A DNA stretch of 5,471 nt. Origin: a virus. Its lineage: Duplodnaviria; Heunggongvirae; Uroviricota; Caudoviricetes. The notes below the pieces were generated by a model. It was not told the DNA's origin. It was given only the letters and a program-made list of their open reading frames with translations, and searched no databases. The translations under genes were made by a program, and so were the position numbers. Location of the stretch: the IMG/VR virus record IMGVR_UViG_2713896904_000005; one strand, 5' to 3'. This document shows, piece after piece, positions 2,944 to 5,280 of the stretch (within the stretch, counting starts at the first letter, position 1; each line of letters starts with the position of its first letter).

Positions 2944-3282
2944 CTATTTCCCTGAATTTACGACGAAACTGTTCGAGCGGGCTGAAGCACTCATGCTCAT
3001 AGCCTTCACGGAGGTAGATAACCCGTTGTGTTTCCGGCTCCCAACGAATGACTCTGACGGGCACTCCGTAGTGATCTTTGAACCAGCGGTTAACTTGTCG
3101 CAAAGGACTGTCTCCTTCTGCCGGTTGAAATCACCCACAGCCCACTCTGCAAAGCTGTGGGTTACAATTTCCCTGTCACCTGGTACATTCACTGCATAGC
3201 AATACTCCACCTTCGCTTTTCCACCCGGTACAGGAAGCGCAATCAGTTGCGAGCGACGGTAGTGTGTTGTTAAACTGTTCAT
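2944..3282 (-). CDS. Hypothetical protein (112 aa), no recognisable domain
   Basis: ORF between the CII-like and O-like genes. ATG 3282..3280 overlaps the upstream stop (ATGA) and is preceded by GGAGA (rc of 3292..3296). Position and coupling argue for a real gene. Confidence 0.55.
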
Positions 3283-3842
3283 GCGTTAGTTTCTCCACAG
3301 TCACGACACGCCACGGCGCCCGGAGCTGCACACTCGCGGGCGTCATTACTTTCTGAAATGCAAAAGATTTTGTAGACCAGTGCTGCATGCTCCTGCAGCT
3401 TCGAAATTGAGAGATACAGCTCGTCGTTAATTGCTGTCTTCTCATGCGGTTCCACTACACCGTCTTCGATTGCTGAACGAATCTGTTTTGAATAACTGCC
3501 GATCTGTTCAATGACTTCCAGCAGACGCTGGTTAATATCGGCGTTGTCCACATCCTCGACGTCAGGAAGAGACACAAAGACGCCATTTGCAGACTGCGCC
3601 ACAGCGTCAGCAATGAAGTGAGTTCCACCAGCACGTTGCAAAATCATTGCCCATCCCAGCGGGAAAATCTGATCGCCATCGGCACGAAGGCGGTTAAATA
3701 ATGCGTTCTCTGTTACATCCAGCCAGTCAGCTGCTTCAGCGTAACCACCCGGCAACTTTGCGATAGTTTTTCTGACAGCTTTCACGTACCACTCAGGCTG
3801 TTTTTCTACTTTCCAGTGATGCTTACCCACGGTTAGCCTCAT
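3279..3842 (-). CDS. CII-like phage regulatory protein (187 aa; CP76/YdaT-like position after cro)
   Basis: Second gene of the rightward operon, 31 nt after the cro-like stop. N-terminal half has an HTH-like stretch ([42 protein letters not shown]) loosely resembling lambda CII. C-terminus carries four Cys (C-x9-C-x7-C-x2-C). No clear SD before ATG 3842, and no in-frame alternative start upstream before a stop at 3900..3902. Confidence 0.6.
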
Positions 3843-3873
3843 CGTTCTGTGGTTAAAAATTGAAAGTGTTCTG

Positions 3874-4074
3874 CTAATCTTTCGGATAGATATCCGGTCT
3901 TAAGTCAGATTTCGTAATTGCACCTGATGTGTATTGCTCAAGTTTTTTAGCCAGCACAAAACTGGCTTTTTTATAGCCATTGAAAACCAGCCGTAAGTAG
4001 CCAGGTGTTGAGCCAACTTTTCCGGCCAACTCGCCCTGCTGTTCTTTGGTTAAAGAGTCCCAATACGCTTTCAT
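3874..4074 (-). CDS. Cro-like helix-turn-helix repressor (66 aa)
   Basis: MKAYWDSLTKEQQGELAGKVGSTPGYLRLVFNGYKKASFVLAKKLEQYTSGAITKSDLRPDIYPKD is a small Cro/YdaS-type HTH protein with the characteristic C-terminal ...LRPDI motif. Divergent from the CI-like gene. ATG 4074 has GGAGG (rc of 4085..4089) upstream; the track's 4098 start has no SD and falls in the operator region. Confidence 0.8.
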   Translation of the reverse strand: MKAYWDSLTKEQQGELAGKVGSTPGYLRLVFNGYKKASFVLAKKLEQYTSGAITKSDLRPDIYPKD

Positions 4075-4164
4075 ACAATATGTACCTCCGGTGTACATAT
4101 TACATGATTAAAATGAACCTTCAAGATACTTGTACCTTAACGGTACAAGGGTTTTAATTTCGTT
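4075..4164. promoter_or_regulatory. Divergent promoter/operator region (OR-like) between cro-like and CI-like genes
   Basis: Two 19-bp inverted-repeat sites: 4080..4098 ATGTACC-tccgg-TGTACAT (6/7 half-site symmetry) and 4130..4148 TTGTACC-ttaac-GGTACAA (perfect). Candidate cro promoter on the minus strand: -35 TTGAAG (rc of 4119..4124), 16-bp spacer, -10 TAATAT (rc of 4097..4102). Candidate cI promoter -10 TTTAAT at 4153..4158, just before ATG 4165. Confidence 0.6.
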
Positions 4165-4839
4165 ATGAAAACAATCCATGACATCCGGCGGTCTAACGCC
4201 AGAAAACTGAGAGATGGTGTTGGCGGGAATTCTTCCTTTGCCACTATGATTGATCGCGAGCCAACCCAGACCAGCAGGTTTATGGGAGATGGTGCTACTA
4301 AAAATATCGGTGACAGCATGGCACGACACATCGAAAAATGTTTCGACCTGCCTGTAGGATGGCTCGATCAAGAACACCAGACAACGAACATCACAAAAAA
4401 ACCTGATGTTTCAATCACTAATAAACAAATCACATTAGTCCCTGTCATATCATGGGTACAGGCCGGAGCATGGAAAGAAGTTGGATATTCTGAGGTTGAT
4501 TTGAGCACAGCAGAAACGTATCCCTGCCCTGTACCCTGTGGGGAAATGACTTATATCTTGCGGGTGATAGGTGATTCAATGATTGATGAGTACCGCCCGG
4601 GAGACATGATTTTTGTCGATCCTGAAGTACCTGCCTGCCACGGTGACGACGTTATTGCATTGATGCACGATACAGGTGAAACCACCTTCAAAAGGTTGAT
4701 AGAAGATGGGACACAGCGTTATCTCAAAGCGTTAAACCCAAACTGGCCTGAGCCTTACATTAAGATCAACGGTAATTGCTCTATAATTGGTACTGTGATT
4801 TTCTCAGGAAAACCAAGAAGATACAAAATCAAAGCCTAA
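4165..4839 (+). CDS. CI-like phage repressor with N-terminal HTH and C-terminal LexA-type S24 autopeptidase domain
   Basis: 224 aa. HTH region (FATMIDREPTQTSRF...MARHIEKCFDLPVGWLD). Probable cleavage site VQAG-AW (compare lambda CI VQAG-MF). Ser nucleophile in LRVIGDSM and Lys in TTFKRL, matching the LexA/CI Ser-Lys dyad context. Divergent from the cro-like gene. Confidence 0.9.
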   Translation: MKTIHDIRRSNARKLRDGVGGNSSFATMIDREPTQTSRFMGDGATKNIGDSMARHIEKCFDLPVGWLDQEHQTTNITKKPDVSITNKQITLVPVISWVQAGAWKEVGYSEVDLSTAETYPCPVPCGEMTYILRVIGDSMIDEYRPGDMIFVDPEVPACHGDDVIALMHDTGETTFKRLIEDGTQRYLKALNPNWPEPYIKINGNCSIIGTVIFSGKPRRYKIKA

Positions 4840-4851
4840 TCAATGTTTATG

Positions 4852-4874
4852 AACCTGCTTCGGCAGGTTTTTTT
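4852..4874 (+). terminator. Rho-independent terminator downstream of the CI-like gene
   Basis: Stem AACCTGC (4852..4858), UUCG tetraloop (4859..4862), stem GCAGGTT (4863..4869), then a T run through 4874, 13 nt after the CI stop. Confidence 0.75.
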
Positions 4875-4878
4875 ATAC

Positions 4879-4912
4879 TTGACAATGTACCCTTTAGATA
4901 CATAATGTACCC
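4879..4912 (+). promoter_or_regulatory. Strong sigma70-type promoter (pL-like) with embedded operator
   Basis: -35 TTGACA (4879..4884), 16-bp spacer, -10 CATAAT (4901..4906). The spacer and -10 contain the 19-bp site ATGTACC-cttta-GATACAT (4885..4903), same architecture as the two OR sites. A further ATGTACC half-site lies at 4905..4911. Confidence 0.65.
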
Positions 4913-4990
4913 AAGAGAAACAACAAACAGGCAGGACGCCCACGAAGTAGCCGCCTGGGGCATATGAAGTCCAGGATGATTCGTTAGCAA

Positions 4991-5028
4991 CAAAAAAGCG
5001 CCCTACAGGACGCTTAGCTCTTTAACAA
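4991..5028. promoter_or_regulatory. Leader hairpin plus boxA-like element (GCTCTTTAACAA)
   Basis: Inverted repeat AAGCGCCC-taca-GGACGCTT (4996..5015). On the minus-strand RNA it forms an 8-bp stem with one G-U pair followed by U6, so it is terminator-like for leftward transcription. On the plus-strand RNA the stem has a C-A mismatch. Immediately 3' on the plus strand, GCTCTTTAACAA (5017..5028) matches the rrn/nut boxA consensus as I recall it. Confidence 0.4.
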
Positions 5029-5073
5029 TCTGGTCCCCATCAACAAGTAACTGATAACTTGAGGAGGTGTGAA

Positions 5074-5280
5074 ATGCACAAAACAGAACCAAAAATCGTC
5101 GCACCCGGATACACAAATGAGGAAATTTACGAGTGGATGGCAAAGAAGCTGGCAGCTATAAACCAGCTTCGTGAAGTGCTGTCTTATCGACAGGAAACAA
5201 TAGACTCCTTAAAAAAACTGGATCAGGAAATCACGGTTTTATCACAGGATGTTACTTTAGATATTGTGCAGACAAATTAG
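5074..5280 (+). CDS. Small hypothetical protein (68 aa), first ORF downstream of the pL-like promoter
   Basis: ATG 5074 preceded by a strong SD GAGGAGG (5061..5067) at 6-nt spacing. Product MHKTEPKIVAPGYTNEEIYEWMAKKLAAINQLREVLSYRQETIDSLKKLDQEITVLSQDVTLDIVQTN is predicted helical/amphipathic with no family I recognise. The track's 5059 start is a TTG that falls on the SD itself. The antisense strand is full of stops. Confidence 0.6.
   Translation: MHKTEPKIVAPGYTNEEIYEWMAKKLAAINQLREVLSYRQETIDSLKKLDQEITVLSQDVTLDIVQTN

Follow-up and report, generated by a model that had tools for sequence, protein, structure and literature searches.

The window, the 5,471-nt stretch of Caudoviricetes DNA that was analyzed as a whole, contained a cI-like repressor gene (ymfK/cohE) and a divergent cro-like gene (ymfT), with three operator-like palindromes between them (Table 1). 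A gene for a CII-like activator (Phage_CP76, PHROG 101) was found downstream of cro. The repressor was identical to the ymfK/cohE product of prophage e14 of E. coli K-12 at 224/224 residues, and cro, the intergenic region and cI together matched K-12 at 964/966 nt. The sole intergenic difference was at position 4110, outside the cI promoter; the promoter, operators and start codon were all the same, and the two sequences were identical from 4111 through 4230. The K-12 e14 prophage is defective, whereas the window continued leftward into genes for replication, RusA and KilA-N that belong to a seemingly more complete prophage. The ymfK/ymfT/ymfL annotation occurred in 2,177 of 5,426 E. coli genomes. 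Phages SfIV and SfV shared 99 and 98% nucleotide identity with the window, respectively, over cI, the operator region and cro, and there the two genes are annotated as cI and cro. A "putative operator region" and a terminator are annotated in these phages as well, and their -10 element and ATG were the same as in the window; SfV showed a few operator substitutions, e.g., OR1 = TGTACCTCCGATATACA. Very probably, the locus is a lambdoid immunity switch from a prophage of the e14/SfV/SfIV type, in which a leaderless repressor mRNA is made from a pRM-like promoter accompanied by three operators.

Table 1. Genes, promoter elements and operator-like sites around the repressor gene (positions in the window).
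Feature	Position	Strand	Details
cro-like gene ymfT, 66 aa	3874..4090	-	ATG at 4074; SD GGAGG 4090..4086; YdaS/HTH_3 hits; PHROG 35
OR1-like site, TGTACC-N5-TGTACA	4081..4097	.	Centre 4089, -76 from cI start; 1 mismatch
pR (lytic), predicted	4097..4124	-	-35 TTGAAG 4124..4119; 16-bp spacer; -10 TAATAT 4102..4097; toward cro
OR2-like site, TGAACC-N5-GATACT	4114..4130	.	Centre 4122, -43; 3 mismatches; holds predicted pR -35 hexamer
-35-like hexamer TTGTAC	4130..4135	+	3/6 to TTGACA; 17 bp 5′ of the -10 element; doubles as left half-site of OR3
OR3-like site, perfect TGTACC-N5-GGTACA	4131..4147	.	Centre 4139, -26; 0 mismatches; over pRM-like -35 and spacer
TTTAAT, -10 element of the repressor gene's pRM-like maintenance promoter	4153..4158	+	Read from sequence; conservation in relatives; lambda geometry
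Discriminator ttcgtt, 6 nt	4159..4164	+	Between -10 element and start; neither leader nor SD; unconserved; without usefully spaced anti-SD pairing
Start codon ATG	4165..4167	+	A is +1 of the leaderless mRNA; K-12 ymfK mapping, window sequence identical there
cI-like repressor gene ymfK/cohE, 224 aa	4165..4839	+	Predicted N-terminal DNA-binding domain and lambda-CI-like S24 autocleavage domain
Intrinsic terminator-like hairpin and T-run	4851..4870	+	Right after cI stop; putative rho-independent terminator in phage SfV annotation
pL-like promoter TTGACA-16-CATAAT (4879-4906) with two operators	4879..4922	+	11/12 match; promoter in phage Ayreon annotation
OL1 and OL2	4886-4902 and 4906-4922	+	1 and 2 mismatches to operator motif; direct repeat, 20-bp spacing

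Residues 93-212 of the repressor matched Peptidase_S24 in Pfam (PF00717, E 1.5e-26), and the closest solved structure was the C-terminal domain of lambda CI (1f39 and 1kca, E 1.9e-9), to which the corresponding domain of the window repressor is homologous. The product was assigned to PHROG 4, transcriptional repressor. S138 and K176, the predicted catalytic residues, were nearly invariant in 26 homologues. K176 was located within TFKRLI, aligned to TFKKLI of lambda, and a WVQAGAW motif containing Ala-Gly was present in most Enterobacterales homologues. Pfam detected no HTH domain in residues 1-90 and no family for the predicted N-terminal DNA-binding domain. Residues 1-92 matched PHROG repressor families 12107 and 5736, and the PDB entry 5d50 "Repressor" was aligned from query residue 1 (E 0.0018).

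The original prediction placed TTTAAT at 4153..4158, upstream of ATG 4165, and the hexamer is read there directly. Its location was right, but the gap to the ATG is 6 nt and not about 7, and the string quoted as the 15 nt before the ATG is 14 nt long. A transcript beginning 7 nt past the hexamer would have the A of ATG 4165 as its first base. From the spacing, TTGTAC may serve as the -35 hexamer of the cI promoter. TTTAAT does not have the canonical A at -11, a position that was variable in the relatives. An alternative -10 register, TAATTT (4155-4160), would bring back A-11; it is less likely, as the mapped start would be only 4 nt away and the last base of this register was unconserved (T in 7/19 relatives).

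When the 33%-GC intergenic region was shuffled with its dinucleotide composition preserved, a hexamer that matched TATAAT at no fewer than 5/6 positions, had T as its last base and was separated from the ATG by exactly 6 nt arose by chance in 1.5% of cases. When a gap of 5-8 nt was allowed, the frequency was 5.5% of shuffles, and 4 of the 167 ATG triplets in the window had such a hexamer. Because of this chance frequency of 1.5-5.5%, TTTAAT by itself is only suggestive; the observation is solid owing to its conservation in relatives and to the published 5′-end mapping of the same sequence. A consensus promoter scan of 3800-5100, which demanded 9/12 or more matches and an A as the second base of the hexamer, called neither the cI promoter nor pR. 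TTTAAT was missed because of the A required at position 2, and the negative result was set aside since it is contradicted by the 5′-end mapping and by the conservation in relatives.

The claim that no Shine-Dalgarno (SD) sequence precedes ATG 4165 was borne out. The strongest anti-SD duplex within 20 nt 5′ of the cI ATG was ACAAGGGU, with -4.3 kcal/mol at a 12-nt spacing, which is outside the useful range, so this pairing is not a usable SD. In contrast, cro showed an anti-SD pairing of -10.8 kcal/mol at 8 nt, and the other gene starts in the window ranged from -6.4 to -13.0 kcal/mol at 3-9 nt. The sole purine run that might have been a hidden SD for cI, AAGGG (4147-4151), was rejected; it was located 12-13 nt from the ATG and was not conserved. 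The folding of the first 60 nt of the cI mRNA was unremarkable (z = -0.61), and its first 7 nt, 5′ AUGAAAA, were predicted to be unpaired.

A search for the repressor family found 370 loci. The relatives comprised 26 further species genomes from the Enterobacterales and Halomonas, with 51-88% protein identity, and 19 diverged relatives having the same 6-nt gap were aligned. In these 19 sequences, T-12 and T-10 were each present in 17, and A-9, A-8 and T-7 were present in all. TnTAAT was therefore conserved at -12 to -7, whereas positions -6 to -1 varied freely (0.04-0.83 bits). Positions -35 to -30 were kept as TTGTAC in relatives. A -10-like hexamer ending 6-9 nt 5′ of the ATG and an ATG as the cI start codon were found in 26/26 relatives, and these genomes also had an operator at about -43. 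The best cI anti-SD pairing over the 26 relatives varied from 0 to -5.1 kcal/mol and was nowhere usefully spaced: in 21 of them it was at 0-3 or 11-14 nt or missing, and in the other five it reached -1.5 to -3.3 kcal/mol. The cro pairing in relatives was -9.9 to -11.6 kcal/mol where the script chose the true cro start, and every one of the 19 aligned relatives had either GGAGG or GGGGG as its cro SD. At the codon start, positions +1 to +8 were fixed and +9 varied, which is a third-codon-position change. Residues 1-27 (MKTIxEIRRxNARKLRDxxGGN) stayed conserved in homologues with as little as ~50% identity; R8, N11 and L15 were invariant. The pairing energies and these comparisons show that cI has no SD and that its -10 footprint is conserved and, indirectly, that ATG 4165 is its start codon.

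Five more distant relatives (36-40% identity, all Gammaproteobacteria MAGs; L033, L053, L058, L071, and L080) were read by eye; they were mixed, and their start codons were insecure. Three of them had a conserved GCTAAATA box farther upstream and may have leaders, and the other two had a -10-like hexamer adjoining an ATG. If this contrast is real, leadered and leaderless loci would provide natural matched pairs to test why prophage repressors are often leaderless. It is possible, although we are inclined to doubt it, that the leaderless layout is a selected, clade-wide design instead of a quirk of e14, with a cI promoter that would be obligatorily activated by the repressor.

Published K-12 experiments on the identical sequence place the 5′ end of the repressor mRNA on the ATG. 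By differential RNA-seq, the ymfK start in K-12 was the first base of the ORF, with a leader of 0 nt (class I; site RVS_(I)-1202156; Romero et al. 2014, PMC4681348, Table S3). Coordinate 1202156 of that study denotes the first base of ymfK; its equivalent in NC_000913.3 is 1202933, and ymfK occupies 1202259-1202933 there, on the minus strand. Table S2 gives 1202157 and Table S3 gives 1202156, and this ambiguity of ±1 nt allows for a leader of 1 nt (PMC4681348). ymfK was also included in a panel of leaderless mRNAs analyzed by RLM-RT-PCR with and without TAP (Fig. S1; PMC4681348). Few mRNAs of E. coli are leaderless: only five had a leader <10 nt, among them ymfK, racR and dicA, and three of the five encode prophage regulators (Romero et al., PMC4681348). 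Under a Rend-seq criterion of a 5′ UTR ≤5 nt, cohE was listed under "the known leaderless genes," and ribosome profiling gave a plotted translation efficiency for a set of expressed genes that included cohE (PMC8794815). This expression and the conserved N-terminus are indirect evidence that protein is made from the 5′-terminal AUG.

A 5′ end well upstream of the ATG had been named as an observation that would speak against the original prediction; the K-12 lysogen mapping listed no upstream reverse-strand start near ymfK (PMC4681348). The forward-strand start, in the cro direction, was absent from the same mapping (PMC4681348), consistent with repression of pR. In the literature, we found neither 5′-end mapping for SfV or SfIV nor an N-terminal protein sequence of YmfK. 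The predicted leaderless cI transcript of the lambda pRM kind is correct, but it was already known from the essentially identical K-12 sequence (PMC4681348, PMC8794815).

The promoter closely resembled lambda pRM, with TAGATT-taacgt-ATG in lambda and TTTAAT-ttcgtt-ATG in the window and a 6-nt gap in both. Both loci have a 17-bp spacer, a weak -35, a divergent cro with an SD, and three 17-bp operators between cI and cro, of which OR3 lies over the cI promoter. In lambda, the repressor at OR2 activates pRM, and the OR2 centre is at -42 in lambda and -43 in the window. However, the operator sequence of the window, TGTACC-N5-GGTACA, is unrelated to that of lambda, and the lambda -10 element has the A-11 that TTTAAT lacks. 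The operator centres are at -66/-42/-19 in lambda versus -76/-43/-26 in the window; the distances between them are 24 and 23 bp in lambda versus 33 and 17 bp here, so the spacing is not lambda-like. The OR region has a variant layout and may work like lambda OR.

There were seven matches to the operator motif in the window against 1.59 expected, and 0/200 shuffles reached seven. OR1 belonged to a longer inverted repeat (4071-4085/4093-4107) and overlapped both the predicted start point of pR and the SD of cro. Of the 19 aligned sequences, 18 retained GTACCTCC at OR1; GTACCCCC was found in one Rosenbergiella locus. OR2 appeared as ATGAACC..CAAGrTAC in relatives, with the full TGTACC in Erwinia and Proteus. 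The OR3 palindrome reached 4129-4149, and OR3 was conserved in all relatives. OR2 and OR3 abut and OR3 is the best palindrome, which could mean a different occupancy logic. From these sequence features, we infer the roles of OR1, OR2 and OR3 and the assignment of pR.

In a lysogen, ymfK/cohE, the cI analogue, is very probably transcribed from a weak sigma-70 maintenance promoter, TTGTAC-17 bp-TTTAAT. Transcription very probably starts on the A of ATG 4165 and yields an mRNA with neither 5′ UTR nor SD, so that the ribosome and initiator tRNA would directly recognise the 5′-terminal AUG, as for the lambda cI mRNA from pRM. Leaderless initiation in E. coli needs a 5′-terminal AUG, a point for which PMC8630535 cites Brock et al. 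2008. Of the three 17-bp operators in the 90-bp cI-cro space, OR1 would cover the cro promoter start together with the cro SD. OR2 would cover the cro -35 and is placed where lambda OR2 (-42) lets CI activate pRM. OR3, over the cI -35 and spacer, would turn the cI promoter off once its occupancy by repressor or Cro is high. Positive and negative autoregulation, as well as the ribosome pathway used, are proposed from this arrangement. The further claim, that a leaderless transcript ties translation of the repressor to one particular mode of initiation, was not established: the known E. coli leaderless mRNAs, including cohE, showed the same kasugamycin sensitivity in vivo as ordinary mRNAs (PMC8794815). 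A special 70S initiation pathway, for which kasugamycin resistance of these genes was not found, is thus not supported in vivo.

Other explanations for the hexamer and the missing SD were considered. The repressor might be made mainly from a leadered transcript with an upstream start, e.g., an establishment promoter that depends on CII, is located close to ymfL/ymfT and is directed antisense across cro, in which case the hexamer would be incidental. The internal AUG would then be used via the weak and distant SD AAGGG, or by SD-independent initiation depending on S1 and A-U-rich sequence. The presence of the CII-like activator gene, the pairing of AAGGG with the anti-SD at -4.3 kcal/mol and the U/A-rich region 5′ of the ATG agree with such a transcript. 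However, the primary 5′ end in the K-12 lysogen was on the ATG, with no upstream reverse-strand start nearby; AAGGG was not conserved in relatives and was 12-13 nt away; and the TnTAAT footprint at a fixed distance is hard to account for unless it is a promoter. A mainly leadered origin of the repressor is therefore improbable. Since the CII-like gene is present, an establishment promoter with a leadered cI mRNA is probably used during infection, as in lambda. The two routes could be complementary rather than exclusive, with the leadered one serving establishment and the leaderless one maintenance.

An internal Met as the true start (M28 at 4246, M40 at 4282 or M52 at 4318) would imply a leader of at least 80 nt. 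Three in-frame ATGs do occur in the first 52 codons, and the lack of a Pfam HTH in residues 1-90 would favor such a start, but no SD was found at any internal ATG, and third-codon-position changes occurred in the first codons. The PHROG 12107 and 5736 profiles and PDB 5d50 aligned from residues 1-4. The conservation of residues 1-27 effectively refuted an internal start, which the original prediction had named as the other finding that would overturn it, and we give it almost no credence. Coincidence in an AT-rich intergenic region, with no regulatory meaning, was given equally little credence: the hexamer appeared in 1.5-5.5% of shuffles, lacked A-11 and was uncalled by the consensus scan, but TAAT at -10 to -7 was present in 19/19 relatives beside unconserved flanks, and the published mapping of the identical sequence refuted chance as an explanation.

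A leaderless start at the first codon, as at ATG 4165, has also been found for other prophage immunity or maintenance regulators, racR (Rac), dicA (Qin) and paaR2 (CP-933P), which are likewise divergent from a cro/ydaS-like gene. Their 5′ ends were on the start codon or ≤3 nt away (PMC4681348, PMC8630535), and for paaR2 both 5′ RACE and sequencing of the protein N-terminus confirmed the leaderless start (PMC8630535). RacR, DicA and PaaR2 belong to other protein families, whereas YmfK is a full CI/LexA-type repressor with predicted autocleavage. RacR and DicA are annotated only as predicted regulators (Romero et al., PMC4681348), and the mass of PaaR2-His was 15,081 Da (PMC8630535).

Little was added biologically, as the same sequence had been mapped before and a special translation mode is unsupported in vivo (PMC8794815). 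What was contributed here is the conservation of TnTAAT, the SD contrast and the N-terminus in relatives, together with the lambda-like three-operator layout. The leaderless gene was correctly recognised from sequence alone, which shows that a -10 hexamer followed after 6-7 nt by an ATG, without an SD and with cro divergent, is a pattern by which prophage repressors can be annotated. In the window, an in-frame TAA was located at 4138, with no start codon from there to 4165. On the practical side, gene callers that expect an SD misplaced the starts of some homologues, lengthening them by 22 codons upstream, through operator DNA.

The window (5,471 bases) represents a lambdoid prophage's early-control region (table). 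BLAST matched the module to the immunity region of the e14/SfV/SfIV type (SfIV 99% and SfV 98% identity, with the genes there annotated as cI and cro); of the 5,426 complete genomes of E. coli, 2,177 contained it as ymfK, ymfT, and ymfL. The nearest solved structure to the repressor was the lambda CI C-terminal domain (E 1.9e-9).

Features of the early-control region (centres relative to the A of ATG 4165 as +1)
Feature	Coordinates	Strand	Remarks
KilA-N protein		minus	
RusA		minus	
LexA-DNA-binding-domain-only protein	1176-1502	minus	108 aa
PerC-like protein		minus	
Replication-initiator-like gene	1993-2934	minus	holds four 15-bp iteron-like repeats
CII-like activator (ymfL)	3279-3842	minus	Phage_CP76 / PHROG 101
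cro-like gene (ymfT)	3874-4074	minus	domain and PHROG matches
OR1, putative operator	4081-4097		centre -76
Predicted lytic promoter	-35 4124-4119; -10 4102-4097		TTGAAG, within OR2; TAATAT
OR2, putative operator	4114-4130		centre -43
OR3, putative operator	4131-4147		centre -26
Proposed cI promoter	-35 4130-4135; -10 4153-4158; +1 4165		TTGTAC; 17-bp spacer; TTTAAT
Repressor gene (cI, ymfK/cohE)	4165-4839	plus	224 aa; C-terminal half peptidase S24 domain, E 1.5e-26
pL-like promoter, strong	after cI terminator		TTGACA-16-CATAAT
OL1, putative operator	4886-4902		inside pL-like promoter
OL2, putative operator	4906-4922		ends just downstream of pL-like promoter
PHROG 1744 gene (function not known)	5074-5280		strong SD, -13.0 kcal/mol

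The original prediction was that the cI mRNA might be leaderless, since TTTAAT adjoins the start codon and no Shine-Dalgarno sequence (SD) precedes it. Direct reading confirmed this layout and its stated positions, in which the hexamer is followed by ttcgtt (4159-4164) and ATG 4165. Within the 20 nt upstream, the strongest duplex with the 3' end of 16S rRNA was only -4.3 kcal/mol, 12 nt from the ATG, whereas the divergent cro had GGAGG (-10.8 kcal/mol, 8-nt spacing) and the remaining gene starts of the window ranged from -6.4 to -13.0 kcal/mol with spacings of 3-9 nt. The hexamer by itself is weak evidence: when the 33%-GC intergenic region was shuffled with its dinucleotides preserved, the hexamer arose 6 nt before the ATG in 1.5% of shuffles, and in 5.5% when a gap of 5-8 nt was allowed. 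The cI promoter was not called by a consensus promoter scan because the hexamer has no A at position 2. The first seven mRNA nucleotides, AUGAAAA, were unpaired in the predicted folding.

An internal Met as the true start would undermine this reading. The next in-frame ATGs were codons 28, 40, and 52, none with an SD, and there was no ATG, GTG, or TTG between the in-frame TAA at 4138 and 4165. The N-terminus MKTIxEIRRxNARKLRD was kept down to ~50% identity, with R8, N11, and L15 invariant in 26 homologues, and PHROG repressor profiles and PDB 5d50 aligned from residues 1-4. The conserved N-terminus and the lack of an SD at the internal codons upheld ATG 4165. In three Serratia/Erwinia-type homologues (P0017, P0031, and P0035), the database gene calls were 22 residues longer upstream (e.g., MHLLNEPARYLYRTGTRRLIRG-MKT...). 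Among the added residues, LY(P/R)(T/L)GT resembles a translated GTAC-rich operator palindrome; the extension is probably a misannotation that arose because the SD is missing.

Published evidence came from E. coli K-12. Over cro, cI, and the intergenic region between them, 2 of 966 positions distinguished the window from K-12 e14; the proteins were identical (224/224), and the sole intergenic difference, at 4110, lay outside the cI promoter. The feature is e14 ymfK/cohE itself, the same rather than merely similar. In differential RNA-seq mapping of K-12 transcription starts, just five mRNAs of E. coli had a leader shorter than 10 nt; ymfK was one of them, and the group also included two prophage regulators, racR and dicA (Romero et al., 2014; PMC4681348). 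Table S3 of that study lists the ymfK start RVS_(I)-1202156 with a 0-nt leader; this is the first base of ymfK in the paper's coordinates and equals 1202933 in NC_000913.3, the ymfK end on the minus strand. Table S2 gives 1202157, so the start carries a 1-nt uncertainty. Leaderless mRNAs including ymfK were also examined by RLM-RT-PCR with and without TAP (Fig. S1; PMC4681348). The published list contains no forward-strand start for ymfT (PMC4681348), which is consistent with a lytic promoter repressed in the lysogen. A 2022 ribosome-profiling study, which took leaderless as a 5' UTR of <=5 nt from published Rend-seq data, named cohE among "the known leaderless genes" (PMC8794815). The sequence observation is confirmed, and the lambda-pRM-like leaderless interpretation is supported by the mapped start and this classification; the phenomenon was already known. 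The further proposal, that leaderlessness couples production of the repressor to a particular way of initiating translation, was unsupported in the single in vivo test found: for the known leaderless mRNAs of E. coli, among them cohE, kasugamycin sensitivity matched that of bulk mRNAs (PMC8794815).

The layout was conserved beyond E. coli. From 80 fetched family loci, upstream DNA was read for 26 non-E. coli relatives with 51-88% protein identity that matched from residue 1, and all 26 had a -10-like hexamer ending 6-9 nt before the ATG. In the 6-nt-gap alignment (window plus 18 relatives, n = 19), T-12 and T-10 were each found in 17/19 and A-9, A-8, and T-7 each in 19/19, while positions -6 to -1 carried 0.04-0.83 bits. 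Position -11 was variable (A2, C5, G3, T9; n = 19), with T in the window, so that the conserved element is TnTAAT. The A at -11 is normally the most conserved base of sigma-70 promoters, and its variability is unusual for this class. T-14 and G-13 were partly conserved, one base off the canonical extended -10. Anti-SD pairing before cI in the relatives was at best 0 to -5.1 kcal/mol; in 21/26 it was absent or at 0-3 or 11-14 nt, and in the other five it was very weak (-1.5 to -3.3 kcal/mol). GGAGG or GGGGG preceded cro in 19/19 aligned relatives, and in those cases where the script chose the true cro start, the pairing scored -9.9 to -11.6 kcal/mol. In five Gammaproteobacteria MAG loci (L033, L053, L058, L071, and L080; 36-40% identity), a GCTAAATA box lying ~20-30 nt before the presumed start replaced the e14-type layout, and some may have short leaders; L033 (TATAGT, 6 nt, ATG) and L058 (TAAAGT, 7 nt, ATGATG) again looked leaderless.

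The motif TGTACC-N5-GGTACA had seven matches in the window against 1.59 expected (0/200 shuffles reached seven), five of them in control regions, and OR1, OR2, and OR3 were all kept in relatives. The match TGTACCCTGTGGGGAAA at 4530-4546 in the cI coding region (2 mismatches) may be due to chance, because ~1.6 matches are expected per window. The cI promoter is weak. Repressor on OR1 and OR2 would block the lytic promoter, and on OR2 it would be placed to activate the cI promoter; OR3 lies across the -35 hexamer and spacer of the cI promoter and would let the repressor limit its own synthesis, or let Cro shut it off. The 90-bp intergenic space is taken up by two promoters and three operators with putative roles; it therefore has no room for a cI leader, and this offers one simple rationale of the leaderless design. 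By analogy with lambda and because ymfL is present, a CII-dependent establishment promoter would probably yield a leadered cI mRNA during infection.

Lambda shares the geometry by direct reading (TAGATA, 17 bp, TAGATT, taacgt, ATG). The repressor gene of the window most likely works like lambda pRM-cI and like the other leaderless prophage regulators racR, dicA, and paaR2; for paaR2, 5' RACE together with N-terminal sequencing gave confirmation (PMC8630535). Operator centres lie at -76, -43, and -26 here and at -66, -42, and -19 in lambda. OR2 and OR3 are directly adjacent (17 bp from centre to centre), and OR3 is the most perfect palindrome, so the occupancy order may differ from that in lambda. 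No published description of the clade-wide TnTAAT-6 nt-ATG layout or of the operator map with its -43 site was found in the literature searched; both are modest additions.

OR1 lay within a longer inverted repeat (4071-4107; TCATACAATATGTAC / GTACATATTACATGA, 87% complementary, arms 7 nt apart) that takes in the cro start codon and GGAGG, and thus the operator half-site TGTACC plus TCC also encodes the cro SD; GTACCTCC was kept in 18/19 aligned sequences. The first ATG of the CII-like gene (3842, minus) had no SD, and GTG 3830 (minus), preceded by GAGG with a 6-nt spacer, may be its true start; the PHROG CII profile aligned from residue 5. Lambdoid origin iterons sit within the O gene, and the four tandem 15-bp repeats at 2562-2625 (consensus CAGATTTTGACGGGT) in the replication-initiator-like gene resemble them. 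The LexA-domain protein, encoded between the RusA and PerC-like genes, consists of the LexA DNA-binding domain alone (PF01726, E 2.9e-19) without the S24 cleavage domain, and could be a competitor for LexA boxes or an uncleavable LexA mimic. Between the pL-like promoter and the gene that follows it lie about 165 nt (4907-5073). The scan scored hairpins in this stretch (4943-4927 and 5015-4996) as terminators on the minus strand; they could act as nut-like or antitermination elements, or could terminate convergent transcription.
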